From contig CM000153.2 of assembly GCA_000004695.1 (NCBI GenBank), positions 1,728,001-1,792,000 on the forward strand: a DNA stretch of 64,000 nucleotides, given 5' to 3'. The position numbers and the translations under genes were made by a program. Shown here in pieces: positions 10,247-52,775 of this stretch (positions within the stretch are counted from its first letter, which is position 1; each line of letters begins with the position of its first letter). The stretch is from Dictyostelium discoideum (taxonomy: Eukaryota). The notes under the pieces are model-generated. The model had not been told where the DNA came from and made no database searches. It saw nothing but the letters and a program-made list of their open reading frames with translations.

Positions 10247-10280
<34 letters not shown>

Positions 10281-10337
10281 CCCAAATTTCCTTTCTAAAT
10301 CAAAGGGAAATGAGATTATATTAATCTTCCAAACCCA

Positions 10338-10372
<35 letters not shown>

Positions 10373-11965: not shown

Positions 11966-12270
11966 TAAACTTGTTATCAAATTTATTATTAATTATAATT
12001 AATTATTATAATTTTTCCCCAGTATTTGAAATTTATCTCTCTTAAAATTTTTAATCATCAAAAAATTGTCTAAAATGATAAACTATCTTTTTTTTTTAAA
12101 AAATCTTATTTTTATACATTTTTTTTTTTTTTTTGTATTTATTTTTTTATTTATTTAATTATTTGTTTGTTTATTGATTTTTCCTTTTTAAAATTTTTTT
12201 TTAAAAAAATTAAAAATAATAAGACAAATAATTTCACCATTACTTTTATTAATATTATTAATTAATTTTT

Positions 12271-20372: not shown

Positions 20373-20910
20373 AAAAAAAATAAAAAAAAAAAAAAAAAAA
20401 AAAAAGAGATAAATAAAAAGAGAATTTAATAAAATTTAAATTAAATTAATAAATTAAAAAATTAAAAAAAGAAAAAAAATATAAAATAAAATTGTTTACT
20501 TACTTTGGACAACTTCTGGCCCAATGTCCCTCTTCATTACACATGAAACATTTGCCACTGCTGCTATCTGGTCTTTTAATACCTTTACTACTATTACTTA
20601 ATTCGACAATAATATTTCTACCAAGGAAATTTTGTTTATGTTCACTATTAATTGCATCATCTGCTGAAGCTTTATCAAAGTATTCCTATTTTTTTTTTTT
20701 TTTTTTTTTTTTTTCAATAAAAAAATATATATTTTAGTTTGTATAATTTTTTTTTTAAAAAAAAAAAAAAAAAAAAAATTGTATACTTACAATAAAACAA
20801 AAACCTTTTCTAAGTTCTAGTCTATCTATTTTTCCAAACTTTGAGAATCTACCATATAAATCATCTTCTCTTGCGTCATGATTCAATCTTCCGATATATA
20901 TTTTTGACAT
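19466..20910 (-). CDS. SR-family splicing factor with N-terminal RRM, CCHC zinc knuckle and a long RS/RD plus Asn/Gly-rich C-terminal domain (SRSF7/9G8-like); complement(join(19466..20251,20503..20685,20791..20910))
   Basis: Minus-strand exon 1 reads MSKIYIGRLNHDAREDDLYGRFSKFGKIDRLELRKGFCFI (RNP2 IYIGRL, RNP1 KGFCFIEY split by a phase-0 gtaagt intron). Exon 2 reads EYFDKASADDAINSEHKQNFLGRNIIVELSNSSKGIKRPDSSSGKCFMCNEEGHWARSCPK (C-x2-C-x4-H-x4-C), followed by gtaagt. Exon 3 starts after the aag acceptor at 20252/20253 (KNSRYNPYHRERSRSRSRDRSRDRDRRRDDRRRSDKRRERDRSRSRSRSRDNRRRDDRDRSRDRSRDRDRSRDR...), runs through a (GN)n/(N)n tract and ends NGL* at 19466. The RS frame has no Met, so the track only shows the wrong-frame GTG ORFs 19651..20262 (-) and 19485..20228 (+). 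Confidence 0.72.
19950..20100 (-). repeat. Imperfect tandem 30-bp repeat (tcttgatctatctctatctcttgatctatc...) encoding SRDRDRSRDR units of the RS domain
   Basis: The periodicity is visible on the plus strand between 19950 and 20100. Confidence 0.8.
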
Positions 20911-21403
20911 TGGTTCTTTAAATTACTACCTGTATAAATTGTGGTAATAATAATAATAATGTACAACACACAATCAATCCACTAAAACAAAAATAAGAGA
21001 ATGCAAAAAAAAAAAAAAAAAAAAAAAAAGAAATAAAAAAAATAGAAATAAAAATAAATAAATATTTATATGTTATAAGAGAAGAAAGATGTGGACAAGA
21101 AAAAAAAAAAAAAAAGAAAAAAAAAGAAATAATCGTTATTAAAAAATTGAAAAAAAAGTTTTTTTTTTTTTTTTTTAAATTTTTAAATTTTTTTTTTTTT
21201 GAAGATTAAAAACTTTGATATAAGGAACTTTTTAACTATAAAAAAAAAAAAAAATTTTTAAAAAAAAAAAAAAAATAGTCAAAAATTTTTTTTTTTAATA
21301 TAAAATAAATAATGTTTATTATTATTTTTTTCCAACAATAATACACATACCAGGATTATATAATAAAATAATTTGAAGGGGCAATATAAAATTAATTTAA
21401 AAT

Positions 21404-26028: not shown

Positions 26029-26345
26029 GATTTATTTGTATATATATATATATTTATATTTATATGTAAGTATGATTGGGAGGAAAAATTAAGGAATTAT
26101 GAAAAAAAAAAAAATAAAAAAATAAAAAATAAAAATACATAAAAAAAAAAAAAAAAAAAAAAAAATGAAAATTAAAAAAACAATTGTTTTTTATTTTTAT
26201 TTTTATTTTTATTTTTTTTTTGGGAGAATGCGCTGATGACTGATGGATTCGTGTGATTATTTTTTTTTTTTTTTTTAAATTAAAATTTATTTACATAAGA
26301 TTTTTTCAAATTCTTTAAAAAATGGTTATATATACATAAACATTC

Positions 26346-28247
26346 TTAAGAAAAGAAACCAAATTTTTTTGATTTAGATTTATTATTTTGATTTTGATTT
26401 TGATTTGGATTTGGAATTGAAGATGATGAATTTGATAAAGAAATATTCTCTCTTGAAGATGATGGAGTTAATTGAGGAATATTATCATTTGAAATTAATT
26501 GACTTGGAATCCATTCAATTAATTTATACCAAGGTATTTCTTGAGATCTTGCCATTTCATATAATTGTTGCATATCTTTTGGTTCACAAGTTTTATCTTG
26601 ATAACATTGATTTACTTTAACACTAATTGCTAATGCCATAAAATATTCTTTATAAAATTGTTGTTCTTCTAATTTTGGTTTCTCTTTTAATTCCTTTTTT
26701 AAAATTAATATCTCTTCTGATAAATTCGATATTGTTTGTGCTTGTTGTTTAATTGTAGTTTGTAATTTATTAAAATCTTCATCTGAAACTATTGATTCTT
26801 TTTTTTTAAAAAAAAAAAAAAAAAATTGGAAAAAAGTGATTAGAAAATATATATTTTTTTTTTTTTTTTTTTTTTTAAAAAATTAAATTAAACTTACTAA
26901 TATTTGAAGATGAAGATGAAGATGATAATGGTGTTGATGAACCACTAGTTGATGATGATGAACCCCAATCAATTGAATTTACAGAGGTTCTTAATCTTGA
27001 TCTACCACCATTTAAAGTTTTTAAAGTCGATTGTAATTCTGATAAAGTTGGTGGTACTTTTTGAAGTGTAAAAAATATTGGATGTTGTAATAATTCTTGT
27101 GCTGTCGGTCTTTGAGTTGGATCTTTTTTAAATGATTGTTGGAAATAGTCTAAAAATTCTTTTGATATATCAGTTGGAAATGGTGGATGTTGATCGGATA
27201 CTATTAAAAAAATTAATATTAATATTAATATGGTACAATATAAATAAAAAAAAAATAGATGATGGTGGTAGTGGTGGTGATATTTTACCAATTCTAAACA
27301 TGGCAGCCATTGGTTGTAATGTATAATATGGTGGATTACCAGTTAATAATTCAATCATTGTAGAACCTAATGACCAAATATCACTTGCAGATGAACAACC
27401 AGATATTTCAATTGATTCTGGGGCCATCCAATATGGAGTACCAACCACTGAGAATCTTAATTGTGATTCTGAATCAATTTGTGATGCAACTCCAAAATCC
27501 GCTAGTTTAATTACACCCTCTTTTGTAATCAATATATTTGATGCTTTAATATCTCTATGTATAACTTTATTTGAATGTAAATATGCTAATCCCTGTAACA
27601 TTTGATATAAATATATTATACATAATTCTTCACTCAATGGTCCAAATTTCTCAATAACATCCCTCAAACTACCATTTTCAACATATCTATTTAATAATAA
27701 AATACAATAAAATAAAAGTAATTAATAATTAATAATTATTTAATTATTTTTTTTTAAAAAGAAAATAAAAAAAATAAAAAAAAAAAATAAAAAAAATTTT
27801 ACTCTAATATAAAATTTAATTGAGCTTGTACCTCTACAACACCTAATACTTTAACTATGTTGTTATGTCTTAATTTATGTAAAATTTCAACTTCCCCTTT
27901 AACTGATTGTAATGAACTTTCATCAATTTTATTTGAATCAATTTGTTTAATTGCAACAAACTCTCCAGTTTTTCCATTTAATCCTTTAAAAACTTGTCCA
28001 AATGCACCTCTTCCAATTTTTTCACCCAATGTCTATGGAAAAAAATAAAATAAATAAAATAAAATAAAAAATAATTTTGGGATTAATTTCTGGAAAAAAA
28101 AAAAAAAAGTGGAAATTAATTTCTAAAGTGCGCACTTACATATTCTCCAATTTTAACAATACTTTTTTTCTTAGAATCTGGCATTATTTGACTTGAAGGA
28201 AATTGTTTTCCATTACCATTATTATGATTATTATTAATTTCAATCAT
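26346..28247 (-). CDS. STE-group serine/threonine protein kinase of the Cdc15 / Cdc7(S. pombe) / SepA family; complement(join(26346..26797,26898..27200,27289..27686,27803..28032,28140..28247))
   Basis: The five exons were reconstructed with phases 0,2,1,1. Exon 1 reads [36 protein letters not shown]|gtaagt. Exon 2 reads [77 protein letters not shown]. Exon 3 reads [69 protein letters not shown]...[51 protein letters not shown]. Exon 4 reads [44 protein letters not shown]... Exon 5 is a coiled-coil tail ending ...KFGFFS*. The kinase core aligns best with S. pombe Cdc7 (LGDCLGKGAFGAVYRGLNIKNGETVAVKKV...[26 protein letters not shown]...GSPYWMAPEVIE...[46 protein letters not shown]). Confidence 0.82.
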
Positions 28248-30055
28248 AATTTTTTTTTTTTTTTTTTTTTTTTTTATTATTTTATTATTTTATTATTTTT
28301 TTTTTTATATATTAATAAAAATTAATTTTTTTTATTATTACTTATTAATAATAAAATAATTGATTTTTTATATATTAAAAATAATTATAATATGGAAAAA
28401 GTATAAAAAAAAAAAAAAATAATTATTTTTTTAAAAAAAAAAAAAAAAAAAAAAATAAAAAAAAAAAACAAAAACAAAAAAAAGAAAACAATTATTAATT
28501 AATTTAAAAATCAATAGGAATGGTGTTAATGGTTTTTTAAATTATAATAATCAACTATAACCCACTGTGTGTGTATTTGTGTGTTTCTTTAAATGTTTTG
28601 TTTGTACTTGTGTCAGTGTGGGTGTGAGTGTGTATATTTTTTCAAAACCCTATCACATATAAATATTTTTTTTAAAAATTTTTTTTAATAAATGAATAAA
28701 AATTTATATTTTTAAAATTTAAAAAACGTTAATGATGATTCTAATGATGATTTTTAATTGCCTATTATTGTTATTATTGTTGTTATTGCTGTATATTACA
28801 GATTATTATTATTGATGCTATTGTCTATAATTGGTAGCTATTATACAAATTATTTAAAAAGGTAGAATAAATAAATAAATAATTAATTTTAAAAATAAAT
28901 AAAAAGAAAAATAATAATAATATTTATGATAATATTAAATTTTTATTTTTTTGTATATATATATATAAATATTATTTAGTGTGTGTATGTGCGTTTGAGT
29001 GCTTCTATTTATTTATATTGTCAGTTTAGAGAGAGAGAGACTTTATTTTTGGAATAATTGGCTTATTTAAATTTACTTTCAATTTAGAAAATAAATAATA
29101 AAAAAAAAAAATAAAAAAAAAAGGGGTTTATTGTTTAAATAACTAGTTTTTTGTGGTTTAATTTAGTGATCGATTGAATTATTGAGAATTAAAAAAAAAT
29201 AAAAAATAAAAAATAAAAAAAAATAAAAAAAAAAAATAAAAAAAATAAAAAAATTAATTAAAAAAATAAAAAATAAAAAATTTTTTTTGTTGTGCGGTCA
29301 AACCAAAAAGATAATTTTATATAATAATCTGATCAGAATATCATTGTGATTAAAAAAACATTTTTTTTTTTTTTTTTTTTATATTTGTTGTATGCGAAAA
29401 GGAGGAGAGAGTGCATTTTATTTTCTTTATTTTTTTTTTTTTTTTTTACATCAACAATTTTTGATAACCACCATTGATACTAAAATTAGAATTATGATAC
29501 TTTCAATTACACAATCCTATTCACCCTTTAAAAAATAAAAATAAAAAAAATAAAAAATAAAAAAAACATTTTGTCAAGATTGTCATCTACTTTGATATAA
29601 TTTTTTTTATTTTTTTTTTTGATGTTATAAAATCGTTCAACAATAACCTAAAAATAGAATTATTGAGTTGTTTTATTTTTTTATTTTTTTTTTTTTTTTT
29701 TTTAAAAAAATAGGTACTTAATTGTTGTAAAATGTTTTGTTGCGGTGGTGGTGTGGTTTTGTTTAAAAAAAAAATAAAAAAAAAACTGGTGGAAATGATG
29801 ATTGTTTTATAGAAAAATTCTTTTTTTTTTTAACAACCATCTTGGATCCAAGATATTACCACCATATAAAATAAAAATAAAAAAAAGAAAGTGCAAATTA
29901 CATTGGCAAAATAATATTTGATTTTTTTTTTTTTTTTTTTGATTTTTTTTTATTTATTTACTTTAGATGATCGTTACAAGTGAAAATATGATAGTATATT
30001 TATTTATTTATATAAAAAGTAAATATAATAATAGTAAAATTTACTATTGTTATAT

Positions 30056-30110
<55 letters not shown>

Positions 30111-30152
30111 CCAAAAGATAACATAAACATATATCTAACTATTTGAAGTGTT

Positions 30153-31359
30153 TCAATTTTGTTTTGTAGTTGGTGATGGTGATGGTGTTGTTGATTTAGC
30201 AGCACCTCGCGTATTTTTATATTTTACATATAGTTTTAAAATGACATTAACAATGATTTCTGGTACATAGAATATTGGTATTTGTTTTGGTAAAATGCCA
30301 TCTTGATTAACCATTTTAGTTGGTTTGGCACTAATTGATAATATAATAAACTAAAATTTTAAAAAAAAAAAGAGATAGAGAGTGAGAGAGTGTGTCAGTA
30401 ACAATATATTAATGTTATTATCATTATTATTTATAGTGTTGATAGATATTTACCAATGGATATAAAATTGAGAAGATAGCATTACCAATTAACATTGGGA
30501 AGAAGAATGAACAAGTTGTAAATATTAAACCATAACCAAACATATATGCCCAATGTGTTTCAAAGTATTGAATTCTTTGTAATAAATTCCATTTACCTCT
30601 TAAAATCCATTTATAACTAGTATTAAGAAGAAGATAGTTTAAAATTAGTAAATTATTAAATTAATTAAAAATAAAAATTTAAAAAACATACTCGAAACAC
30701 CAAAATGAATAAAGCCAAGTTATAATTACGAAATTAATGAAATTGGTGTATGGAATGAATGCAATGATTGCAGACATTACCAAAATTACACCAAATAAAA
30801 GATTTCTATAAATTTCATCAACGAATGACGATAAAATTCCATTTGTAGAATTTGCAAATGTTGTACGACCTGAAATTACAAATGATTCTTTTGCAATCTC
30901 TGTATACCATTTGGAATTTGCTATAATACTAAATATATAAACTGGATAAACCCATAATGACTATATAAAATAAAAAAAATAAAAAATTGTTAGTATGTTA
31001 AAAATAGCCCAATAACAACAATAATAATAATAAAAAGGGAGAGAAGAAGAAAGAGGATTACATACAAAATAAATGATTGTAAACATATTTGATAAAGTTG
31101 GGAAATGATTTAATAAATAATTTAACATTGGTGATACCCAATATAAATAGATTAAATAGGTACCCAAGAATATTATACCATTTAAAAATATACAATGTAT
31201 GAAATTCTTTCTTAAGACTTCTGATTTTATGGTTCGAATGATTGCTCCTTTTAATTTCATTGAATCTGCTACTCCTAACCATATCAGTTTGAACATTTCT
31301 TTTACTTGTGGAATTGTATTATCTATCCTTTTTGTTACATATTCTTTAAATGTCTCCAT
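30153..31359 (-). CDS. EI24 (etoposide-induced 2.4 / PIG8) family multi-pass membrane protein; complement(join(30153..30350,30454..30616,30692..30960,31066..31359))
   Basis: The four exons are bounded by gtatgt/gtaaat donors. The spliced protein matches the human EI24 C-terminal half: ITWLYSFWCFDYKWILRGKWNLLQRIQYFETHWAYMFGYGL...FSILYPLFIILSISAKPTK vs [40 protein letters not shown]...[20 protein letters not shown]. Confidence 0.8.
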
Positions 31360-31485
31360 TATAATTGTATATATATATTTTTATATATATATCTAAATAT
31401 ATATTTTTATATATCTTGGGGTTTTTTATTTTTATTTTTAAAATAATATTGCTATTGCTGTTTTAAAATTTCCTTTTTGTGTGTT

Positions 31486-31529
<44 letters not shown>

Positions 31530-32137
31530 AAAAAAAAAAAAAAATTTTTTTTTTTTTTTTTTTGTTTTTTTTTTTTTATAACTCAATACAAAACACTTTT
31601 TGTTTAAATTTAAGGACAAAAAAAAAAGAAAATTAAAATAAAAAAAAAAAAATAAAATAAAAAAAATAAAAAAATAAAATAAAATAAAATAAAAAAATTA
31701 AGTTTTTTTTTTTTAATTTTTTACAAAAAAGATCATTGCAAGACTTATCCCCAAGTTATCAAAATAAAAAATAACAAAAAAAAATAAAAATAAAAAAAGA
31801 AATAAGAAAAAAATAAAAAAGAATTTAAAAAAAATCAAAATAAGGAGTGTGTGCATACTTAAGTTATTATTTTTTTTTTTTTTTTTTTTTATTTTTTTTT
31901 TTTTTTTTTTTTTTTAATTTTTTTTTTTTTTTTTTTATTTTTTTTTTATTTTCACAATTTACAACGATAGATAAAAAAAATTTAATTTTTTCCCGGTGAA
32001 AAAAAAAAAAAAGGAATCAAATAAATTTAATATACCATTACATGAAAAAAGGAAAAAAATTAAAATGACGGATATAAATTTAAATGACATAAAGTCTTCC
32101 CTTTCTATTGTTAATGATTCGTATGTATTTTGAATGC

Positions 32138-32176
<39 letters not shown>

Positions 32177-32707
32177 CTTGCGCTATATTTTTATTTAAGT
32201 AGAAAAAAAAAAAAAAAATAAAAATAAAAAAAAAAAGAAAAAAAGAAAGAAATAAGAAGAAAGAATAAATAAAATAAAATAAAATAAAATAAAAAAGAAA
32301 AAAGAAAAGAAGAAAAAAAAAAAAAAAAAAAAATATTATAACTTAATGCACACCATTATTTTTCTTTATTTCACTCCCTTTTTCTTTCTCTTTATTCAAA
32401 AACTTTTCTCTTTCTCTAACCTCTAACTTCTTATCTATTTTCTACTATTACTATAACTATTACTATAACTATTACTACTATTCCTATTTTCAATACAATA
32501 CCTCAAACCAACAAAACCAAAAACACAACAAAACCAAACCAAACACACAAAAAAACCAAACACACAAAAAAAAAAAAAAAAAAAAAAAATTTCCAATTAA
32601 AAAAAAAAAAATCAATGTTTGTCCCTTGATCAAATTTTATCCTTTTTTTTTTTTGTAATTGTTTTATTTTTATTTTTATTTTTTAAATTTTTTAAATTTT
32701 TTGAAAT

Positions 32708-36027
<3,320 letters not shown>

Positions 36028-37295
36028 TAAAAAAAAAAAAAAAAAAAAAAAAAGAAAAAAACAAAAAAAAAAACAAAAAAAAAAAAAAAATCAACCCATC
36101 GTAAAAATATCAATTAATTACAATAATAGTATAAAATACTTAATGGCGATTATTTAATAAATAACAATTCACTATTTTTTAGAATTAAAAGTGATTTTTT
36201 CAACTTTTAATAAAAAATTAAAATGATTGGTGTGCAGGTTTATTACTTTTTTTTTTTTTTTTTGACGGTGTGTTTTGGATTTTTTTTTTTTTCTTTTTAA
36301 GTTTTGTTTATAAAAAATTGTAAGGTGAAAATATCAATTTCGTTAGGTTTTTTTTTTTTATAGATTTTTCATTGCGCCTTTTTTTTTTTTTTTTAAACTT
36401 TGCCAAATTACAAGATTTTATTTTTTTTTTTTTTTAAAATTTTAGGAAACCCATTAATTATTGAACTCAATGAAACAATCATGATTTTAATCACAAATCA
36501 CTTTAAAATAAAATTTAGATTGAATACCTAACCCCTCATAATTTCATTCATTAATTCATTTTTTTTTTTTTTTTTTTTTTTTGAGGAGCCCGCCTTTTTT
36601 TAAAATTTTTTTTTTTTTTTGGGAGGGAAATTAGCAGTGTTTCAGATCTAAATATTGTATTGTTGGGTTGTTTATAATAATTTTTTTTTTACATCCAATC
36701 AATTCTTTAACTTGAGATCTCGAATGTTTATAATAGTTGTGTTTTTTTTTTTTATTTTAATTTTGTTTTGTTTTTTTTTTATTTTTTTTTTTTTATTTTT
36801 ATTTTGTTTTTTTTTTTTTTTTTTATTAATAATAATAATAAAAATAATAATGGGAGTTAAAGCGTGCAAACACCAAGTAGGGGGGGGTTTAAATTTAATG
36901 TTTTGCTATGTTGTTTATGAATTAATATGTTATGAATATTAGGGGTGATTAAAAATGGTTATAATACAATAAAAAAAAAAAAAAAAATTATAAAAAAATT
37001 AAAAAAAATTAAATTATTAATTTACAACATAATAGTACCCTATATTTGGGCTGTTTGTTGATGTAATGATAGTTTATTTTTTCTTTTCTTTTAATTATTT
37101 TTAATTAATATTTTTTTTTTTTAAAAAATAATTTTTTTTTTTTTTAATTTTTTTTTTTTTAAAAAAATAACATTTATTTTTAAGTTTACTTTAAATTTGT
37201 TTTTTTTTTTTTTAAAAAAAATATTATAAATAATAATCATAATAATATAATAATGGGGTGATTTAATCAATCAAAATACTTATATACTCCTCTCC

Positions 37296-37356
<61 letters not shown>

Positions 37357-38082
37357 CAACCAATGGTACCATTGTACCATATAAAAATAGGGTTTAAAAG
37401 ACTGCTAATTTAAGATGAATGTAGGTTAAACAATTCCCAGCGAATTAAGGTAACAATTTTTAATAATTATTCGAATTGGTTAAAAAAGGTGATTTAATTT
37501 TTTTTTTTTTTTTTTTATTCACTTTTTTTTTTTTTTTTTATTATTAAAAACTATTTTTTATTGATGAGAAAAATCTCCAATAAAGATGTCCTACCTTCAT
37601 ATTAATTTGAAAATGGTTTATCCTTTTTTGATGTTGGTAGATTTTATTTTTATTTTTATTATAATTTTTTTTTTTTTTTTTTTTTTTTCTTATTATTATT
37701 TTTATAAAGGATGGGGGTTTTATATAAGGTAATAATCAGCATGGAATAAAGGGTCCATCACTTATTCACACCCTTTTTCATTTACACATTTTACTTGATT
37801 TTTCACTTGTCAAAAGGCAAAACTATTTTTTTTTTCCAATTAATACACTCCATATAATTATTCTCAACTTTTTGTCAACCAAAAAGTTGACAACCAACTC
37901 AACAATATATAGTTTCATTCAATTTTGTTGATTGAATTAAATTTAATTAAATTAATAAATGTTTTTATAATTTTATTATTTAATTTTTAAAAAAAATTTT
38001 ATTTATTTATTTTTTATAAACAATTAATTCAAACTTTAATAATAATAATAATATCACACACACAACGGGGGTAAATTTGGCT

Positions 38083-38117
<35 letters not shown>

Positions 38118-39241
38118 GTTTTTCTAAACACTTTTTTATGTGCAACTCCTAGCAATTTCAGACAAGTAAATAATAGTTTTAAAACAATTTTTTTATTTTT
38201 TTACATAAAATCGACCATTTTATTTCTTTTATAATATATAAAGTAGCAATGTGAAAAAAAAAAAAAAAAAAAAAAAAAATAAATAAATTAATAAAACAAA
38301 TTAATTTTACCCCTTTTTTTATTTTATACAATTTTTTATTTTTTTACAAAATTTACTTATTTGATTGATGGTTATATAGCAATTTTTTTGTATTTTTAAT
38401 ATATCTGTGGGTTTAACCACTATAAAAAACCCACATTAAACCACTTAATTTCTACAAAAGTTAATTAAAATATTGTTTGTTTTTCAATGCCCATACACAT
38501 TTATCCGTTTTTGTTGAAAGTATGACGAAGCCAATAGATAAATCAAACAATAAGATTAAAAAATAAAATAAAAATAAAAAATAAAAACAAAATATAATAA
38601 AAAAAAAATAAAAAAAAGTAAATTATTAAACCATCAATATTAATTTTATTCCAATACACCACTAGGTGATAATAATTTATGGAAAAATTAATAAATAAAT
38701 AAATATTAAATATATAAATAAATAAATTAATAAGTAAAAATATAAATAATTACAATAAAAGTAAAATAAAAAAAGATTTATCAAATAATATCAATATACC
38801 TTACAAATTTAAATTAATAGTTTACATTATGTTAATTTGGTTTTATTTATATTGTTATTTATTATCCATTCAAAATTATTACATTCCAATTTAATTTTTT
38901 TTTTTTTTTTTTTTTTTTTGGTTTTTTTTTTTTTTTTTTTTTTCCTAAAAAAATAACAAAAATACTATCCAAATGCTCGGCTCTCAGCAATAATGGGTGG
39001 AATGAATGGTTTTTTAATTAAAATAAATTAAATTAAAATTAAAATAAATTAAAATTAAAAAAAAAAAAAAAAAAAAGAAACAATTTCTAATTGGTCGAAA
39101 GTAATTTATTTTAAATATATTTTTTTTAATTTTAATTAAATGGTATGGATATAGACAGTGGTAGTTTATTAAATACCACCATTTTTGTGTTATATATTAA
39201 AGTTTATTCAAATTAATTTTTTATTAAAAAATAAATAATAA

Positions 39242-39274
<33 letters not shown>

Positions 39275-40358
39275 AAATTAAAAATTAAATAAAAGCTACA
39301 GAAAAATAAATAACCAACTAAATTAAATTAAAAAACTTTTTTATTTGTTGTCGACATATTTCATTTCGTTGATGCAATAAAATTAAATTGTATATCTAGG
39401 ATTTGAATAAACTTTTTTTTTTTTTTTTTTTTTTTTTCCCAAAAAAATTTGGTTATAATAATATAGCCCAATAAAAAATAAAAAAAAACTAACCAATTAA
39501 ATTTAACTAAAATTTTAGGTTCATTTTATTATTATTATTATTTTTATTATTTTCTATCTTTAATGAATTGGTGGTAGTGAGTTTTTTTGAGATTTCGTTT
39601 ATATTTAACCAAGGAGATTTAAATTGACCCAATTAGATTTTCCCAAAAAAAAAAAATATTATTGTAATAATTTACCATTCACCACAAATTGTTAAAATGT
39701 AATTGAGAGTGTGAAATTGAAAAGGTGTGATACATTGAGATTTTAATTGTGGAAGTTAAAATCAAACACAAAATGTTAGTTCTTTAACTTTTTATTATAA
39801 TAATAAAATCAAAATCAAAATCAAAATCAAAAAACCAAAAAGAATTTGAAAGATTAATATGATGCAATCTCTTTATTTTTTGAGAATTCTGATTTTGTTT
39901 ACATAAATGGTAAGTTTTTTTTTTTTTTTTTTTTCAATTAACCATCAATTTTTTGTTGTAATTGTTTGTTTTTTTTTTTTTTTAATTATTTTAAGTGTCA
40001 ATTAATGGTGTTTAAATTATTGGTATTATATGTTTTTCTACAATAAATCATTGAAATTATAATAATTGTAGATGGGAATAAATCAATACTATCACTCTAT
40101 AAAAAATTTGAAGAAAAAAAAAATTGTAACACTGGGTGATAAAAAAAATAATTTGAATGAAATGTTGATAATTGCATTGAACTTTATTTTAATAATTTAA
40201 CTATAATAATGATTTTAATTTTTTTTTATGGGTAAAAAATGATTAATAATAATAAAAATAATTATTAAATACAAATTTCCCCAGTATTAGGGGTATTAAA
40301 TTGTATAAATTTGATTATAAGTTTTCTTTACCTTTTTTTTAAATTGCCAAATTCAATC

Positions 40359-40397
<39 letters not shown>

Positions 40398-41698
40398 GTG
40401 GTTGATTTGAATAGGGGTGGGGTAAGTAATTAATTATATTTATATATATTTTTTAGGGGTTTTAATAGATGTTGTCATATGCATCATCAAAAAGAGATAC
40501 TGTTTTAATTTAGTAATACTTGTTTTTTTTTTATGTTAAATTTTTTTTTTTATGTTAAATTTTTTTTTTTTTTTTTTTTCGGAGTGGGTTATTTGATAAT
40601 TTATTAGTAGTTTTAATAAGTTGGATACGTTGTGTGTATTAGTGTTGAATGAATTTGAATTGAAATTATTTTAAAATGATTTTTTTAATGGAGAAGGGGG
40701 TGATTTAAAATTTTTTTTTTTTTTTTCACAAATATTATTGTTGTTTTTTTCATTATTTCGAACAGTTTACAATCTCAATGGAGCACTTTTTGTATTAATT
40801 TATATGGGAAATATGTGATGGTTTTAATATTTATATATATTTATATTCAAAAAACAATTTAATAATTTTTATTTGGAGTAATTGTATTCACAATAAACCC
40901 ACATACACAAAAAAATACTCTTTCAATAATTCTTAATAGGTAGAGTGAGTGTGAATAATCATTTGAAAAACGAACAGGTTTTTTAATTTATTTATTAAAA
41001 CCTATAACCAAACAAGAGACAAAATTAATTTTTTTTTAATACAAGCCCAAATATATTATTGATAATAATTTTTTATTATAATTATATAATTATAAATAAA
41101 TATAAATAATTATATATATATATATATTTATATATATATTGCATATATAATTTTTTTTAGATATATATTAACAATAACCCCTTTTAAAATATTGACCATT
41201 TGAATTTATTTAATATATTTATTGGGTATGTAATTTTCAAATGATTTAACCACAATAAAAGGAAAACTATACTTGTTACTTAAAGAATAAAGTTTTTTTT
41301 TTTTTTTTTTTCTTAAAAAAATTAATAAATTAAAAATAATGGTTTTTCCTAACAACAATAAATTTAAAAATAGTAGTTTTGATAATACTAGTAGTTTATA
41401 ATAGTAAATACATGTAAATATTTAGCATTTTTTAATATAAATGCATTAAATTTTGTTTTTATTTAAATGATACACAATGTGATGATAAAAAATGATGACA
41501 ACATAAATTTTTTAAAATTTTCATTAAAGTATCACTATTTTCATAAATTTATTTCTATAGTTGTTAAAAATATTTTTAAATAAATATTGATATTCAAAGA
41601 ACAACAAAAAATAAAATATAATTTATTATATAAATCTATTAATATTTTTTCCTAAAATATATTTTCATATAAATACAAGTAAAAAAAAAAAATTGTCA

Positions 41699-41699
<1 letters not shown>

Positions 41700-41794
<95 letters not shown>

Positions 41795-41797
41795 TTA
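41700..41797. repeat. (AAT)n microsatellite of about 32 copies in non-coding DNA
   Basis: Directly visible. A second (AAT)n of about 22 copies is at 42741..42808, and a (TTA)n of about 19 copies is at 48339..48396. Confidence 0.9.
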
Positions 41798-42739
41798 AAT
41801 GAAGATATTGTAATGAATTTTCTGATTTCTATTTTTTTTTTTTTTTCAAAAATTTATTTTAATATTGTTATTTTTGATTGTTACAAATGTATTATTATAA
41901 AAATCATTAAAAATCATATTTATCCATAGATTATTTTTCATTATATTTTTAAAAAATGTACATACAAAAATTATATATATATATATTTTTTTTTTTTATT
42001 CCTATAAATATATATAATTTTAATTATTTTATATTTTTTTTATTTTTTATTCCAATCTAATATTGATTTTATGTTTTATTGTAATTGGTGGTAATTCCAA
42101 AGATATAATTAAAACTCGTATGTGATTTGAAATGAGATATATACTTGAAAATTATTTAAAATGATGGTTTTTTTATTTTTTTTTTTTTTTGATTAAAGGT
42201 ACCTTTTTCTATTTTTTTTTGTGGTTTTTTAAAGTTTGTGGTTGTGGTTTATACATGTTGATATAAGATGTATGTGTTAAATAATAAATCAACCCCCCAA
42301 TCTCACATTTTAACTATTATTTTTGTAAATATTATAATTTTATTTTGATTTTTTAAAATTAACACATACATAGATTAATATAAATGGTTAGTGAGCCAAA
42401 TTAATTTATTTTATAGTAATAATTTATAATGATAATTGCAAAAGGAAATAACATGTGTGTTCTATTTTATTGTATAAAAAAAATTAAAAATAAATTAAAT
42501 ATAATTGTAATGGTGTTATAGTGTAGTGGTGGTAGAAGTAATAGTCAATTACTATAAACCAATAAACACACACAAACTACCACTTATTTTTCACACCACA
42601 CTATTTAACTCACCACTAATACTTCAATTGGTGAATAAAAGGAACAACTACAAAAAAACAATAATAATAACAACCATAAAAAAAAAAAAAAAAAAAAAAA
42701 AATTAAATTGATAAACACCACCACACACTATACATATAT

Positions 42740-42809
<70 letters not shown>

Positions 42810-43659
42810 TAAAAAATGTTTGTTATTACCACAGTTATATAAGCACACAACACAAAACAACACAAACTAAATTATAAAATAAACATTACCACACATTATA
42901 ATTACCTCCGGTACAACTTTAACAATAATATATCTAATATATATAAACTTTCGATAGTATAAATTCCAATAATCACACATATACCAACACTACATATTAC
43001 ACTTTTTTATAAAATCTATTCAATGATTGAAATAAATTAAAGGAATACTTAAATTAAAAAAATTAATAAACCACAAACTACCACATGAATTGTTATTATA
43101 ATGATATTGACAACAAATTTTTACCACTAACTCACTCACTATCTCACTCACTCACACACTCACTCATTATCCATCTATCATCCAAACTTTTTTTTTCTTA
43201 CACTCATATATGTTTATCACCCTTCTTTAAATCAAATGTAAAAATAAAACCAAAAAAAAAATTATAAATAAAAAAAATTAAAATTAAAATTAAATAAAAA
43301 ATAATATTAAAAAAAATAATAATTTATTAAAATCATCACCAAATATACAACAACAAATAATAGAACAACAATAAATTAAAAAAAAAAAAAAAAACACTAC
43401 CAAAAAACAACAGCTGCAATAACAACAGCTACAACTACAACTACAACAACAATAACAACAGCCAATGTTTTTTTTTTCTTTTTTTTTTTTTTTTCTTTTT
43501 TTTTTTTTTTTATTATTATTTTTAATTTAATGATTTAATTAAAAAATTTGTTCTTTTGTCCCAATTCAACTAGAAAATTAAACAAATTATGAATGTTTTT
43601 ATTTTTTTCATTAAAACATTTAAAAAAAACAATAGGTTTTTAAAATTTAATTTATTGGA

Positions 43660-43690
<31 letters not shown>

Positions 43691-44329
43691 CAACTATTCA
43701 AAAAAAAAAAACCAATTATTTTGATATCAAAATAAATCATTTTTTTTTTGTTGCATTCAATCCAGTGAGCAATAATATTTTCTGTAAAAAAAAAAGTAAG
43801 GTAAATAATAAATGGTTAACCTTTTTTTTTTTTTTATTTTGTGGATTTTTTTTTTTTTTTTTTTTTCTAGTCAACCATAACACCTTTTTTTTTTTATTTT
43901 TTATTTTTTTTTAAAAAACTATTTTTTTTAAATTTTTTGCTTTTTTTTTTTTTAAAATTTGATTAGTACTCTATTATTGAATAGCTAATCAAATTGTGGT
44001 TTAATTCTAAATCACCATTCTTCTTTCGATGACTATTTATTTATTATTGGACCTTTTGGTATTAAAATAATATCATAAGATTTAAATGGTTTTTATAAGT
44101 TGAAAATAAAAAAAATTAAAAAATAATTATTATTTTTTTTTTTTTAATTTTAAAAAAAAAAAAAAAAAAAAATTGATTGTTAATATTTTATTTCCACAAT
44201 CACAATCATTTAATTATTTTTTTTGTTCAATACCTAATATTTTTTATTCTTGGTAAATATCTTTTTTTAAAAAAAAATAATCATTATTTTTTTTACATAT
44301 TAATTATAAAAAAAAAAATAATAATAATA

Positions 44330-44372
<43 letters not shown>

Positions 44373-45234
44373 CTATTACCATAGTTTTTGATGTTGTAAT
44401 TTTCGATTCCAATTGATTTTTTTATTTACCTGCCTAATAATATCATAAATAATTTTATTATTATTTTTAAAAAATAAAAAATTAAAAAAAAAAAAATCAC
44501 CAAAAAAACAGATATAATCTCTTTTTTTATTTTCATTTTTTTTTTTTTTTAAATCAAAATAAAAAAAACATTTTAAAACAAATTAATTTATTATAATAAA
44601 AAAAAAACAATCATTTTAAAATGTTTTTCAAACAATATCACATTTGGAATTAAAAATAATTAAAATCACATTAATATCATTAGTGATGAATAAAATAAAA
44701 AAAATAAAATAAATCAATTAACCAATCTATAAATCAATTCCATTTATGTAATTGATTTTAAACCTCAATAATAATAATATTATAAACACCATCTGTTAAT
44801 TACCACTATTTTTGTACAAATATATATAAATGTTTTTTCCTTTTTTTTTATTATTATTCTGATAAAAAATCCTCGTTCTAAGTTAACTGTTTGTTTTGAA
44901 TTCCTAAGAGGATTTTTGTACAGTGATGATCAACCTTTGTATTCATTAAATAATAAATAGACACAATTTATAATAAATTTTAAAATTTATTTGTAGATTA
45001 TTTTTTTTTTTTTTTATTGTAACTTTATGTCATTTTTTTATTATTGTTTTTTTTATTTTGTTGTAGTTTTTGTTGTTGTTATTTTTTTTGTGTTTGTTAT
45101 TTATTTATTTATTAATTAAAAAAAAAAAAAAAAAAAAAAAAAGAGCAAATTTGCATTCTTAATTAATAACCACTTCACACTGCTGCCAATTAATATTTGG
45201 ATCTACATATCAAACGCACTCACACCCCAAATTA

Positions 45235-45237
<3 letters not shown>

Positions 45238-45270
<33 letters not shown>
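45238..45270. repeat. (CA)n dinucleotide microsatellite (about 14 copies); the complementary (GT)n is at 49015..49036
   Basis: cacacacacacacacacacacacacacaaaaacg at 45238, and tgtgtgtgtgtgtgtgtgttg at 49015. Confidence 0.9.
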
Positions 45271-45273
<3 letters not shown>

Positions 45274-45760
45274 CGATAAATGCAACTATCACTACCACTA
45301 CTATGCTTTTCATCACCAACAAATCATTTATTTTTGTTTTAAAAATTTTTCATAAAAAAAAAAAAAAAAATTTAAATAAAAAAAAAAAAAAATCCTGATA
45401 CACCATTAACGCACTCATATCCATTTTCAGTTCTAAAATATGCACAACACATTTGAAATTTTTTTTTTTTTTTTTTTTTCTGTTGTTGGTTTCATAATCT
45501 TTAAAATTGTTACCAACTCACCCCATTTTTAAAATTGCTTGTGTGTGCTTTTTGTCAAAAAATTAAATTTCAATAATTGAATTGTGAATCACTTTCAACT
45601 TTAACCTCAATTTGGTCTCAACAATCTCAATATATGAAAGGGTTTTCCTTTTGATAATCAATAATGATGAAAAAAAAAAACTATTTTACAAACAAAGATT
45701 TTTAAATAACAATTAATTTTTTCATAAAATGATTATTATCAGGTTAGGCAATTTTTCTTT

Positions 45761-45802
<42 letters not shown>

Positions 45803-46300
45803 CAAAATAAAAAAAAAAAAAAGAACACCCAAGATGTATTAAATTAAAAGTTTTTTCAATTATTTTTTTTTTTTATCACTCTTACAAATAATTATTTGTT
45901 TAAAAAAAAAAAAATAATAGATATAAAAAAAAATAAATAATAATATAAATAATAAATAATATAATATATAAATAATTATATAAATATAAATATAAAATTA
46001 ATAATTTTTTTTATTACTTACAAATTTAAAAAAAAAAAAAAATATATACATATTAAAATAAAAAAAAAAAATTAATCAAAAATAACAATAACAACAATAG
46101 AAAAAAAAGTATTTACTTTATAATTATATTTGTACATTATTTTTATACTACAAACTTTAATTATTTTTAATTTATTAAATTTAATATAAATTCAACATAT
46201 ATAACACTTAATCCCCCATTTTTATTTTTTTTAAAAAAAATAAATTATTAAATAAAAAAAACAATTCCAACCAATCATACCCATTCTTTAAACAATTAAG

Positions 46301-46347
<47 letters not shown>

Positions 46348-46789
46348 AACTACAAGTAATACACCTACAATCACATAAAAACCAAAACAACATAAGAAAT
46401 TAATTAATTAAAACCCCTATTTTTTTTTTTAAATCGATTTTTTTATATTTTTATTTTTATTTATTTTTAAATTTATTTTTAAATTTATTTTTGTTTTTCA
46501 AACTTATTTTAAATTTTTTTTTTTAATTTTTTATTTTTTTTTTTTTTTTGAAAACAGATAAAAACATTTGCGCAAGTTTTATTTATTGATACATCACCAA
46601 ACCATTCTCATTCATAAATCTATTGTATTTTTTGTTCATATGAATTTTTTCCACTTACTTAAAAAAAAAAAAAAAAATTATATAAAATAGCTTAGTGCTC
46701 CCTCCTCCTTTATTTTTATTTTTTTTTTTCCCAATTTAGATTATTAAGTAATTAAAATCACAATCTTTAAAAAAGAAAATCTCAAAGGT

Positions 46790-46828
<39 letters not shown>

Positions 46829-47071
46829 TTTTTAATCCCTTTAAAACAAATAATTTTTATCATTATCATAAATACCACATCAATTTTTTTATTTTTTTTT
46901 TTTTTTAATTTTTTTATTTTTTAATTTGTAAATTTAACTTAATAATTTAGTTGTAATTATTTTTTTTTTTTTTTATTTTTTTATTTATTATTTTTTTTTT
47001 GCTCTTTCTACTTTTTTTCCTATCTCACTTTTTATCTCTATTATTTTTTAATTTTTTTTTTTACATCGAAC

Positions 47072-47113
<42 letters not shown>

Positions 47114-47487
47114 AAAACTACAAACCATAACTAGTGTAGTTTATAACGATTATTAAACCCTTAGACTGTTTGGTTTATTTAAAATTTTTTTTTTTTTTTT
47201 TTTTTTCATATCCTCTAAATTTTCCCAAACACAGAAAAACTATTTAACTCCTTCGATTCATTGCATGGTTTTTTTTTTTTTTTTTAATTTTTCAAAATTT
47301 ATTAATCTCGCCCAACCAATCAACAATTCATTGCAAATTCAAAAAAAAAAAAAAAAAAAAAAAACAGATATTTTTAATTTTTAATTTTTTTTGTAAATTT
47401 TGATTATTGGATATTTATAGAAAGATTTTTTTTTTTTTTTCAATTAAAAATCACATTCCAATTGTTGCCAAAATTTATTTTCATTAA

Positions 47488-47528
<41 letters not shown>

Positions 47529-48334
47529 AATTGTTTTTAAAAAAAAAAAATATGTTTTTTTTTATTAAATAGTATCACTCTTTGCATTATTTATTTATTT
47601 ATTTATTTATTTTAATTTTAAAAAATTTGTTAAAAAAAAAAAAAAATTTAATCATACCTTAAAAAATACAAAAGGTATTATTTTTTTTGTTTGAAAATTT
47701 TTATTTTTTCCACACCCACTCATTACACTGGACGAAATCTCACCGATGTGAAATTAGCAAAATTACAAAAAAAAAAAAAAAAAAAAAAAAAAGAAAAGAA
47801 AAAAAAAAAAAATTAAAAAAAAAAATTAAAGTTGCAATGACCTCAATATTGGAATGATTTTTTTTTTTATATATTTTTTTATATTTTTTAATCAAAATTC
47901 AAAAAAGTTCTTATTGAATTTTTTTTTAAAACTTAGATATTGCAATATATGTTGTCATTTACATTGTTGTCTTTTATTCTGTAATTTGGAAGCCCATTAA
48001 CATTTTTATTTTTGGTGTAAATATGCAAACAAATGTTTTTTTTATTTTGACCTTTTTTTTTTTTATTAAAAAAATAAAAATAAAAATTGCATCCAATGCC
48101 AATTTTTCCCATTACCCCTCATCATCAACACCTTCCACTCCCTTTAAATTTTTTTAAATTATCAATACTATTATTATTATTATTATTTTTTTTTTTTTTT
48201 TTTAATTATTGTTAAAAAATTAAAAAAAAAAAAAATCACAATAAAAAAAAAAAAAAAATCAATCAAAAAAAAAAAAATAGTATATATTTATTAATTTATT
48301 TTTCTTTATTTATACAGTGTATCAATTATAGACA

Positions 48335-48386
<52 letters not shown>

Positions 48387-49588
48387 TAAAAAAAAAAAAA
48401 AAAAAAAAATTATTTCAATATTATTGGTCAATTAATTTAAAGGTAATTTAACACATTTTTATTTATTTTTTCCTTTTTCCATTGACATTTTTCACACCAA
48501 AAAATTATTATTAGAATTTTTTCCATTTTTTCCATTGTTTTTTTCCATTGTTTTTTTTTGGATTTTATTTTATTCTATTTTTTTTTTTTTATGGATTACA
48601 ATTTTATGTATAATAATAAAACCCACAAAAAAAAAAAAAAAAAATCTTACCTTTTCAAATTATGAGAAAATTCTATATCCATGCCAACTCGGCTTTTTTA
48701 TCATCGCACACAATAATATCACACACTTTTTTCTGTGTGTGAGTGTGTGTAGCAATATTTATCACATCATTCCACTATCGACCCCTTTAAATTGTGTTTT
48801 TCATTGTTGCGTCAATATTGGCGATGTAAAATTGTGTTTTCTTAGTTTATAAAGTGTGATTAAAAATAACAACATTCTTAAAATTTTAAAACCGTTTGTG
48901 TTTTTTCACAGCTTTATATTTGATTTGTAACTTTAAAATTTAAAAAAAAAAAAAAAAAATTAAAAAATCCACACCCCCACTCACCAACACTCAATCCAAA
49001 TAGTTTTTTTTTTGTGTGTGTGTGTGTGTGTGTTGTATCTCAAACAAGTAGATCGATGAAAGTTTTTTTATTTTTTTTTTAATAAACTGGTGCCAGAATT
49101 CTATTTTTAAATTTATTTTTTTTTAAATATTTTTTTTTTTTTTTTTTTTATTTGATAGAAACCCATTCAAACCATTCATTGTTTTTAATTTTTATTTTTT
49201 TTTTTTTTATTTTTTTTATATTTTAAAAAAAAATACCTATGGTTCCAATTTTTCAAATTAAATTCTCAAAAATAATTATTACCATTGTGTGTGTTTGTGT
49301 GTTTTGAAATTATATCACCATAACAACCCACTTTAAACCCACCCTTTCTTTTTTTATACATTTTTTTTTTTTTTTTTTTTTATTAATAAAAAAAAAAAAA
49401 ACTGTTTTATTAGAAATCATTTCAAAAAAACACCTCACCATTATTTTTAATTTATTTTATTTGTTATTTTTTTTTTTAAAAATTATTTCATCTAATTATT
49501 TCTTTATTTATTGATTTATTTTATATTTTTTTTAATTTCTAAATTCATAAATCTTAATCACATTGTTTTAATCAACTAAATTATCTAT

Positions 49589-49627
<39 letters not shown>

Positions 49628-49780
49628 TTAATTTAATTAATTAATTAATTTATTTATTAATTTATTTTTTATTTTATTTTTATGATTTTAAAAATTATTT
49701 ATTTAAAATAATAGTAATATTACAACAAAAAATTTCTCAATTCAATCATACACACATTATTATTAAAATTCCAAAAAAAA

Positions 49781-49812
<32 letters not shown>

Positions 49813-49901
49813 AGAAAAAAAAAAAATAAATAATAAATATATAAACAAAACCAATTACAAACTAATAAAATTTTAATAATAAAATAAAATTAAATAATAA
49901 A

Positions 49902-52775
<2,874 letters not shown>

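Follow-up and report, generated by a model that had tools for sequence, protein, structure and literature searches.

Genomic setting and coding potential of the interval

The window, by which we mean the whole 64,000-nucleotide stretch of DNA analyzed, was placed at D. discoideum AX4 chr4:1728001-1792000 (offset 1,728,000), and all eight published start and stop codons of four genes matched at this placement (ATG and TAA verified). On the basis of published gene coordinates, a long intergenic interval lies between two plus-strand genes.

32065-36027, + strand: left flanking gene DDB_G0284321 (PTB-like)
36028-49901 (chr4:1764028-1777901), no strand: intergenic interval, 13,874 bp, 16.6% GC
49902-52775, + strand: right flanking gene DDB_G0284255 (zinc-finger protein, putative transcription factor)

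The interval is ∼20 times the mean intergenic length of D. discoideum, and its GC content fits the lncRNA median of 17%, not the 13% of untranscribed intergenic DNA. A preliminary description of this DNA had placed the genes elsewhere in the window 70-1900 bp apart; that contrast was overstated, as the same coding measure also revealed ORF-poor blocks at 9448-12383 (2.9 kb) and 27722-32704 (5.0 kb).

No coding potential was detected in 36028-49901 on either strand. All 13 ORFs of at least 50 aa were low-complexity nonsense, and the top non-microsatellite open frame scored below 10 bits in a codon log-likelihood model trained on the genes of the window, compared to 30-720 bits for real exons, which bears out the initial impression that the interval holds no credible ORF. 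A single ATG/GTAAGT-like site at 39907-39915, followed by a 17-codon frame, would suit a concealed protein gene of very short exons, and the decayed remains of a pseudogene or transposon, or an error of assembly, may be envisaged in the same vein, but coding-like codon usage was absent from every open frame of 30 codons or more, the repeats of the interval belonged only to low-complexity families with no complex dispersed repeat found, and the gene-ID numbering together with a published neighbor table give no annotated gene between DDB_G0284321 and DDB_G0284255. We regard such hidden content as extremely unlikely.

Asymmetry of C and G between the strands

The cumulative G-C curve divides the interval into two parts.

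36028-42543, no strand: proximal half, weak opposite polarity (G 9.1%, C 7.6% on the + strand)
42544-49901, no strand: strand-asymmetry domain (C 11.2%, G 5.3% on the + strand; cumulative G-C change point at 42544)

The plus strand of 42501-49901 contained 831 C and 392 G (skew −0.36), and the skew was negative in each of the fourteen 500-bp windows of this region. The background, defined by thirty 500-bp segments of noncoding DNA from the rest of the window, was symmetric (mean +0.03, SD 0.24) and differed from the skewed half with a Mann-Whitney p = 2e-5; the excess of C over G that had been noticed by eye from ∼42.5 to 49.9 kb was thus confirmed by the 500-bp skew check. The accompanying claim that this strand is A-rich was incorrect, with A at 41.9% and T at 41.6%, and no T>A skew accompanied the G/C skew. 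The asymmetry was strongest in runs (37 CCC versus 1 GGG on the plus strand, and no G run of four or more in 42544-49901). The proximal half carried ten G runs versus four C runs of that length on the plus strand but showed no significant departure overall from background skew. The excess of C over G continued into the zinc-finger gene, and the cumulative skew was flat from ∼53 kb.

One explanation of these data is that the stretch serves the zinc-finger gene as a large cis-regulatory region made up of many modules, with the skew arising from many similarly oriented C/A-rich protein-binding elements, putatively of the CAE/G-box type, and with any lncRNA models being incidental enhancer- or promoter-associated noise. 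GBF binds CAE/G-box-type elements in post-aggregative promoters. CAE-like half-sites (C[AC]C[AC]C[AC]C) occurred at 3.4/kb in 42501-49901 versus 0.44/kb in other noncoding DNA, CACCC/ACCCA occurred 16 times versus 0 for the reverse complement, a similar CACACACACTCACTCAC block was present upstream of the gene at 697, and several palindromes had strong z-scores. The skew is diffuse, however: a value of −0.34 was left once all CA/GT tracts were taken out, isolated C exceeded isolated G (233 versus 150), and double-stranded binding sites have no need of a common orientation. We consider this explanation unlikely, though worth weighing.

Published lncRNA models in the interval

Five lncRNA models, all on the minus strand, were listed for the interval by Rosengarten et al. 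2017 (PMC5295588, Files S4 and S6).

37345-38471 (chr4:1765345-1766471), − strand: CUFF_3346_1, 1126 nt; left boundary in a T57 run
41796-43464 (chr4:1769796-1771464), − strand: CUFF_3348_1, 1668 nt; ends next to an (AAT)n array and a T-run
43919-45753 (chr4:1771919-1773753), − strand: CUFF_3349_1, 1834 nt
47514-48225 (chr4:1775514-1776225), − strand: CUFF_3350_1, 711 nt; both ends within A-runs
48288-49510 (chr4:1776288-1777510), − strand: CUFF_3351_1, 1222 nt; head-to-head with the zinc-finger gene

The five models add up to 6,561 nt (47% of the interval), and four of them tile the skewed half, in support of the earlier suggestion of independent long non-coding RNA. When the full published list was inspected by eye, this was the only interval with five consecutive same-strand lncRNA models and the largest such cluster. 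The underlying data are strand-specific, rRNA-depleted RNA-seq with a strand specificity of ∼0.91-0.99 at neighboring genes; the filter was permissive, with 2 reads at any time point being sufficient, the median maximum lncRNA expression was 1 RPKM, and the source paper concedes strand-switch artefacts for antisense RNAs (PMC5295588). Of the ten model boundaries, seven are no more than 10 bp away from a low-complexity run, compared to an expectation of 3.2 (P ∼0.02), and a single 62-bp A-rich stretch forms the gap between CUFF_3350_1 and CUFF_3351_1. Most ends thus fall at homopolymers or microsatellites, to which reads cannot be mapped uniquely, and the real RNAs are therefore probably longer or fewer than five.

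On its own sense strand, each of the models was richer in G than in C: 121 versus 94 for CUFF_3346_1, 206 versus 109 for CUFF_3348_1 (p = 5e-8), 211 versus 118 for CUFF_3349_1 (p = 3e-7), 72 versus 46 for CUFF_3350_1, and 146 versus 90 for CUFF_3351_1 (p = 3e-4). The same held for the single plus-strand lncRNA model of the window (28449-29223), so that all six models showed sense-strand G>C (skew +0.13 to +0.41; five with p<0.03) and the skew therefore tracks the annotated transcribed strand. In further support of minus-strand transcription, the skew was equal or higher through most of the unmodeled gaps (60 G and 176 C on the plus strand of 45754-47513). The correspondence is imperfect at the edges: the skew spans 49511-49901 past the modeled 5′ end, and CUFF_3348_1 extends ∼750 bp past the skew boundary.

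These observations also bear on whether replication or some other non-transcriptional mutational asymmetry, such as a switch in fork polarity near 42.5 kb, could have produced the skew in functionless spacer DNA. The sharp change from G-run to C-run polarity at ∼41-42.5 kb and the symmetric AT content would agree with this, but the domain is just ∼7-10 kb long and ends with the transcription units, and another, independent locus of the window shows the same agreement between the sign of the skew and the strand of the lncRNA. We find an origin of this kind very unlikely.

Analysis of the GC islands

Nine short GC islands in the interval had been proposed as possible small RNA genes, a suggestion that gained no support. 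The islands matched no Rfam family at the gathering threshold, and relaxing the cutoff to E ≤ 5 gave just one miRNA match, which was at chance level; no tRNA was found, and no Class I RNA signature was present, with DUSE and Class I motif counts at chance. Five of the nine islands fall within the published lncRNA models. Two structured elements were identified.

37864-37891, no strand: perfect 11-bp inverted repeat CAACTTTTTGT / ACAAAAAGTTG, within CUFF_3346_1
48719-48810, no strand: local hairpin cluster, within CUFF_3351_1

The inverted repeat had a fold z-score of −3.4, and none of 200 shuffles folded equally well. In the hairpin cluster, CACACAC pairs with GTGTGTG at 48719-48742, and the minus strand forms another stem at ∼48740-48810; the z-scores were −3.8 (+ strand) and −3.1 (− strand), and the cluster gave no Rfam match.

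Direction of transcription relative to the zinc-finger gene

The skewed region had been described as co-oriented with the plus-strand gene; instead, all five models lie on the minus strand, divergent from DDB_G0284255, and PMC5295588 lists no plus-strand lncRNA model in the interval. The 5′ end of CUFF_3351_1 is 391 bp from the DDB_G0284255 ATG, and the sequence between them may serve as a promoter common to the minus-strand lncRNA and the zinc-finger gene.

49511-49901, no strand: candidate bidirectional promoter and 5′ UTR region, 7.7% GC (G 6, C 24), with a (TTAT)n array and an A58 run

According to the preliminary description, the skewed 7.4 kb would be transcribed from the plus strand, yielding either a long leader and upstream exons that belong to DDB_G0284255 or an lncRNA in the same orientation as the gene, in which case the minus-strand models would be weak antisense artefacts of the kind that the source paper concedes (PMC5295588). 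The continuation of plus-strand C>G into the zinc-finger gene fits this proposal, as do the C-runs on the sense strand, which resemble those of D. discoideum introns with their G4 motifs on the template strand (PMC6511855), and the AATAAA frequency of the plus strand (5.5/kb), which is lower than that of the background (8-10/kb) or the minus strand. A sense signal ∼100 times its artefact should nevertheless have been called, and no plus-strand model exists anywhere in the interval; the lack of a call counts against the proposal because the same unmappable runs would split such a signal into separate intergenic pieces. Moreover, GTAAGT is absent from the plus strand of 42501-49901 and GTAAG occurs once, which makes splicing of upstream exons implausible, Dictyostelium 5′ UTRs are mostly <100-200 nt (PMC6511855), and the sole plus-strand lncRNA of the window has a sense strand rich in G and not in C. 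Plus-strand transcription of the region, including the long leader, thus appears decidedly improbable.

Relationship to known systems

Among the untranslated RNAs of D. discoideum, the classical example with developmental regulation is dutA, an AT-rich, ORF-less Pol II transcript of ∼1.3 kb that is a single abundant RNA. The transcripts described here, likened to dutA by description only, are also ORF-less and AT-rich RNAs of the same organism but differ in number and abundance.

All five transcripts belong to the D. discoideum lincRNA catalogue (Rosengarten, Santhanam, Kokosar and Shaulsky 2017, G3 7:387; PMC5295588). They are intergenic RNAs of 0.7-1.8 kb that are for the most part unspliced and are devoid of coding potential, and their GC contents of 17-19% compare with a catalogue median of 17%. 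Whereas that paper states "no obvious pattern of clustering", five same-strand models occupy one 13.9-kb interval here, and the models overlap a marked imbalance of G and C between the strands, which the paper left unexamined at a locus that it did not discuss.

Divergent promoter-associated lncRNAs by transcription-factor genes of animals and yeast share the head-to-head layout, a 5′ end within ∼400 bp of the ATG, and low abundance. They extend over 0.2-2 kb, in contrast to an apparent 7.7-12 kb here, and the co-expression of the proximal model is weak (r = 0.31). The AATAAA-rich antisense strand (91 copies on the minus strand, or 60 without TTAT-type arrays, versus 41 on the plus strand) fits the U1-PAS prediction of short unstable RNAs, yet models occur far from the promoter.

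With regard to transcription-associated asymmetry, mammalian transcription units have more G than C on their non-template strand, and C exceeds G around plant and fungal transcription start sites (Fujimori et al. 2005, PMC555766). The present locus is similar in that the skew keeps one sign, extends as far as the transcribed domain, and is tied to the transcribed strand in six of six units, but it has no consistent T>A companion skew, which counts against reading the skew as a footprint of transcription, and the skew, at −0.36 over 7 kb, far exceeds those of mammalian introns. D. discoideum transcript 5′ ends have no mean GC skew (0.015 ± 0.33; PMC555766), so the sign to be expected in this organism is not established, and its introns, with G-run motifs on the template strand and C-rich sense RNA (PMC6511855), would favor plus-strand transcription here.

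Proposed basis of the locus

The gene desert and its skew are real, and the RNAs are largely catalogued already (PMC5295588). We think it probable that the interval is a long protein-gene-free domain upstream of DDB_G0284255, with low-level minus-strand transcription proceeding away from the gene into at least five lncRNA fragments. With CUFF_3351_1 starting no more than 391 bp from the ATG, the simplest layout would be a head-to-head (divergent) arrangement, behind which would lie either further minus-strand units or one longer unit that has been broken up; the AATAAA wealth of the minus strand counts against one 7.7-kb read-through RNA. The plus-strand C>G would then be the counterpart of G>C in the minus, RNA-like strand throughout the 7.4 kb tiled by four of the models, and the skew may be the long-term footprint of one-directional transcription, left by biased mutation or repair coupled to transcription, to which selection on G-run or CA-rich elements may have added. 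The lax published filter weighs against divergent transcription, as do the weak and inconsistent expression correlations of the models with DDB_G0284255 (0.43, 0.36, 0.13, −0.32, and 0.31). An array of cis-regulatory elements is compatible with transcription of this kind. We infer that transcription is the cause of the skew, and the lncRNAs, or the act of transcribing them, may act in cis on the zinc-finger gene.

Gene-free interval between DDB_G0284321 and DDB_G0284255

The interval at 36028-49901 is flanked by two plus-strand genes, DDB_G0284321 (PTB) and DDB_G0284255 (zinc-finger). DDB_G0284321 is annotated at chr4:1760065-1764027 (+), ending at window position 36027, and DDB_G0284255 at chr4:1777902-1780775 (+), a span of 2,874 bp that corresponds to the window ORF 49902-52775 (PMC5295588 File S6). 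The offset of 1,728,000 between window and chromosome positions was checked on four published genes, and all eight of their start and stop codons were ATG or TAA, which places the window at chr4:1728001-1792000 of D. discoideum AX4. The 13.9 kb between the two genes are the complete intergenic interval. Its GC content is 16.6%, compared with ~22% for the whole window (1-kb profile, 500-bp counts); the window's coding sequences contain poly-Asn/Gln repeats. A codon log-likelihood was trained on the long ORFs of the window, and stop-to-stop frames of at least 30 codons were scored. With the exception of (AAT)n arrays, no such frame in the interval exceeded 10 bits, whereas the real exons of the window scored 30-720 bits. 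ORFs of 50 aa or more number 13 in the interval, and all were homopolymer-derived, low-complexity nonsense. These results bear out the preliminary description, which had found no credible ORF here, and on the same two grounds we rejected a hidden gene of short exons. Transposon or segmental-repeat content was also rejected, as the repeat search yielded low-complexity families only. The gene density of D. discoideum is ~1 per 2.5 kb, and the interval is a real outlier against both this density and the mean intergenic distance of ~700 bp (PMC5295588). Because it is a gene-free outlier in a compact genome, it is probably maintained for a reason. The accompanying claim that genes are closely spaced throughout the rest of the window goes too far, since there is a second large ORF-poor block at 27722-32704 (5.0 kb).

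Published lncRNA models in the interval

Five lncRNA models from a published catalogue (PMC5295588), all on the minus strand and with a combined length of 6,561 nt, lie in the interval. Names follow File S6 of that work.

lncRNA models in the interval (window coordinates, chr4 coordinates, strand, name, source)
37345-38471 (chr4 1765345-1766471), minus strand, lncRNA CUFF_3346_1, PMC5295588
41796-43464 (chr4 1769796-1771464), minus strand, lncRNA CUFF_3348_1, PMC5295588
43919-45753 (chr4 1771919-1773753), minus strand, lncRNA CUFF_3349_1, PMC5295588
47514-48225 (chr4 1775514-1776225), minus strand, lncRNA CUFF_3350_1, PMC5295588
48288-49510 (chr4 1776288-1777510), minus strand, lncRNA CUFF_3351_1, PMC5295588

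For the catalogue, a developmental time course (0-24 h) was sequenced from paired-end, strand-specific libraries depleted of rRNA, uniquely mapping reads were used with a maximum intron of 500 bp, and the filter was lax, with at least two reads at some time point being sufficient (PMC5295588). Its lncRNAs were required to be intergenic and to have no tiling path to a neighbouring gene (PMC5295588); the five models are fully inside 36028-49901 and are intergenic in this sense, and by codon scoring and the low complexity of their ORFs they also lack coding potential. The GC content of the interval (16.6%) falls on the lncRNA side of the published comparison, in which the median was 17% for lncRNAs and 13% for untranscribed intergenic DNA (PMC5295588). 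The models are unlikely to be antisense artefacts, because the far stronger sense signal needed to produce them would have yielded models of its own. Elsewhere in the window the catalogue places putative antisense RNA models at 32258-32800 (-), 7599-8504 (+), and 20837-21110 (+), overlapping DDB_G0284321, DDB_G0284243, and DDB_G0284245; this class was flagged as artefact-prone by the catalogue's own authors (PMC5295588). CUFF identifiers disagree between Files S4 and S6 of PMC5295588 at identical coordinates (S4 gives CUFF_1436_1 for chr4:1765345-1766471, for example, and S6 gives CUFF_3346_1), as if one column of the supplement had been sorted wrongly, and the models should therefore be identified by coordinates rather than by names. 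When we inspected the whole list of 621 lncRNA models by eye for same-strand runs, this was the only intergenic interval seen to have five. Closest to it came chr4:3888506-3894339, with four models on the minus strand, and a 10-kb region, chr5 2625190-2634291, with two models per strand.

The five models substantiate one alternative in the preliminary description, an independent lncRNA. That description had also taken the stretch to be co-oriented with the plus-strand gene and had considered a long 5' leader with upstream exons for DDB_G0284255; we found support for neither. Every model in the interval is on the minus strand, and none on the plus strand is listed in the catalogue (PMC5295588). 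The plus strand of 42501-49901 contains no GTAAGT and a single GTAAG, and D. discoideum 5' UTRs are mostly shorter than 100-200 nt (PMC6511855), so that a spliced plus-strand leader is very unlikely. Of the 10 boundaries of the minus-strand models, 7 fall no more than 10 bp from a homopolymer or microsatellite run, versus 3.2 expected (P ~0.02). Boundaries at such unmappable runs imply that the models are truncated, and the RNAs themselves are probably longer, or fewer in number. They may be a single 7.7-kb transcript, which is not claimed here; the abundance of AATAAA on the minus strand counts against one uninterrupted RNA of that length. The hexamer occurs 91 times on the minus strand versus 41 times on the plus strand, an asymmetry that is due largely to TTAT/TTTATT microsatellites (60 versus 41 after TTAT-type arrays were masked) and on which we do not rely.

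Strand asymmetry of the interval

C outnumbers G by 831 to 392 on the plus strand of 42501-49901 (skew -0.36), whereas 36028-42500 has a slight G excess (588 G versus 493 C); the turning point of the cumulative G-C curve is 42544. The remaining noncoding-like DNA of the window (20.4 kb) served as control. Its C and G are balanced (8.45% and 8.46%), and its 500-bp skew has a mean of +0.03 and an sd of 0.24 (n=30). All 14 of the 500-bp windows in the skewed half were negative, with a mean of -0.35 (Mann-Whitney p = 2e-5 versus the control). The proposed excess of C over G is thus confirmed, but the proposed A-richness of the plus strand is not, as A (41.9%) hardly differs from T (41.6%) in the skewed half. 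The asymmetry is diffuse rather than tract-borne. It was unchanged (-0.34) when every CA- or GT-tract was left out, and isolated bases on the plus strand of the skewed half number 233 for C and 150 for G. Short runs are more strongly polarized, with 37 CCC versus 1 GGG on the plus strand of these 7.4 kb and 16 occurrences of CACCC/ACCCA versus none of the complement. Run polarity flips near 41.2-42.5 kb: to the right of this switch there are seven or eight C runs of at least 4 and no such G runs, and the left half has the opposite polarity, with ten G runs and four C runs of this length. The G-rich segment at 39.5-41.7 kb has no published transcript model on either strand.

Comparable skew was seen at one other place in the 64-kb window, 5001-6000 (skew -0.52), where a GH9 cellulase-like gene (3870-5681, +) is followed by a C-skewed repeat region in other frames, probably a Thr/Pro-rich linker or tail. 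The upstream region 1-654 has 55 C and 13 G on the sense strand of the downstream gene and carries CACACACACTCACTCAC, which resembles 43125-43166. At 26032-26348, upstream of a minus-strand gene, the plus strand has 31 G and 12 C and is hence C-rich in the sense direction. A general rule that DNA upstream of every gene is C-rich proved weak, the pooled upstream skew being -0.09 to -0.11 for 19 genes with approximate starts.

Relation of skew to transcript strand

On its own sense strand, G exceeded C in all six lncRNA models of the window, with skews of +0.13 to +0.41 and a binomial p<0.03 in five of the six. The sixth model is on the plus strand.

28449-29223 (chr4:1756449-1757223), plus strand, sixth lncRNA model of the window, 93 G and 39 C on the sense strand

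This plus-strand model sits in the ORF-poor block 27722-32704 and is divergent from a minus-strand gene ending at ~27721. Within the interval the skew persists through most of the unmodelled gaps, such as 45754-47513 (60 G and 176 C), and it is constant in sign along the unit (14/14 windows) and tied to the annotated transcript strand (6/6 models). No consistent companion excess of T over A was present on the sense strand (A/T of 610/744, 756/750, 302/292, 586/401, and 521/391). The sign to be expected of transcription-linked skew in D. discoideum is not established, because transcript 5' ends are on average without skew (PMC555766) and introns, which have G4-type G-runs on the template strand and C-rich sense RNA (PMC6511855), have the sign opposite to that of the lncRNA models here. 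The coincidence of an lncRNA cluster with a sharp domain of G/C skew and run polarity and the 6/6 agreement appear to be undescribed in the literature searched. A broader proposal is that G/C skew, and above all the polarity of G- and C-runs, marks the strand and extent of non-coding transcription units throughout the D. discoideum genome, and that the interval would be an extreme case, a divergent domain of ~8-12 kb kept gene-free because its transcription or RNA controls the zinc-finger gene in cis; we consider this proposal rather unlikely to hold.

GC islands and CA-rich elements

The preliminary description had suggested that nine short GC islands of the interval could be small RNA genes, and this was not borne out. 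Rfam gave no match in the whole window at the gathering threshold and, at E<=5, one chance-level match in the interval (mir-3149, 21 bits versus a 100-bit cut-off); ARAGORN detected no tRNAs. For DUSE, the upstream element of dictyostelid ncRNAs (consensus WCCCAYAA), there were 7 matches versus 10.5 expected. The 11-nt Class I motif, CCTTACAGCAA, gave 11 matches with up to two mismatches versus 8.7 expected, none being convincing in the interval; both are thus no commoner than by chance. On these results small-RNA genes (Class I RNAs, snoRNAs, snRNAs, and tRNAs) were rejected. Five of the nine islands, 37380-37480, 37700-37930, 38390-38540 (in part), 47700-47760, and 48640-48860, are inside published models. 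Each island was folded on both strands and structures with z <= -3 were singled out, giving local hairpins (z of -3.1 to -3.8) that are all inside published lncRNA models.

37864-37891, local hairpin
48719-48742, local hairpin
48740-48810, minus strand, local hairpin

The sequences involved are short palindromes or neighbouring CA and TG microsatellites without an Rfam match, and they could be protein-binding palindromes instead of RNA structure. C/A-rich half-sites of the CAE/G-box type occur at 3.4/kb in the skewed half versus 0.44/kb in the background (~8-fold). Judged from sequence, their clusters would fit regulatory DNA and are GBF-type candidates, but this enrichment leaves the diffuse skew unexplained.

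DDB_G0284255 and the divergent lncRNA cluster

CUFF_3351_1 (minus strand, 5' end at 49510) is head-to-head with DDB_G0284255 (plus strand, ATG at 49902), the distance from 5' end to ATG being 391 bp for a model whose ends are set by unmappable repeats. Expression of this proximal model has a Spearman r of 0.31 with DDB_G0284255, and the other four have values of 0.43, 0.36, 0.13, and -0.32 (PMC5295588). The DDB_G0284255 product, labelled C2H2, is 957 aa as a continuous ORF with two C-x4-C...H-x3-4-H motifs, and a GTAAGT at 49917 suggests a possible early intron in the annotated coding sequence. The protein had no Pfam match at E<=0.01, and its zinc-finger region had no homologue in a 5.8-billion-protein database. 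The PTB RRM region had just three distant matches (31-48% identity), none from a dictyostelid. Exact look-ups of the zinc-finger protein and of six proteins of the window gave no entry, and the protein collections covered evidently do not include dictyostelids. Within the literature searched, DDB_G0284255 is not mentioned and DDB_G0284321 is named in one paper, a REMI gene list.

Apart from the claims of A-richness and gene spacing, the gene desert and its C/G skew are real and statistically solid. This desert is an outlier, catalogued as the source of five minus-strand lncRNA fragments divergent from the zinc-finger gene. The transcripts have been published (PMC5295588), and nothing found here indicates a new kind of element. 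The 6/6 agreement of strand and skew suggests a cheap predictor of the polarity of non-coding transcription that needs sequence only. By our ranking by eye, the sole genome-wide catalogue has no same-strand lncRNA cluster as dense as this one, which lies beside a putative transcription factor. The locus thus offers a concrete, genetically tractable case in which to ask whether lncRNAs or long regulatory domains are of importance to a social amoeba.
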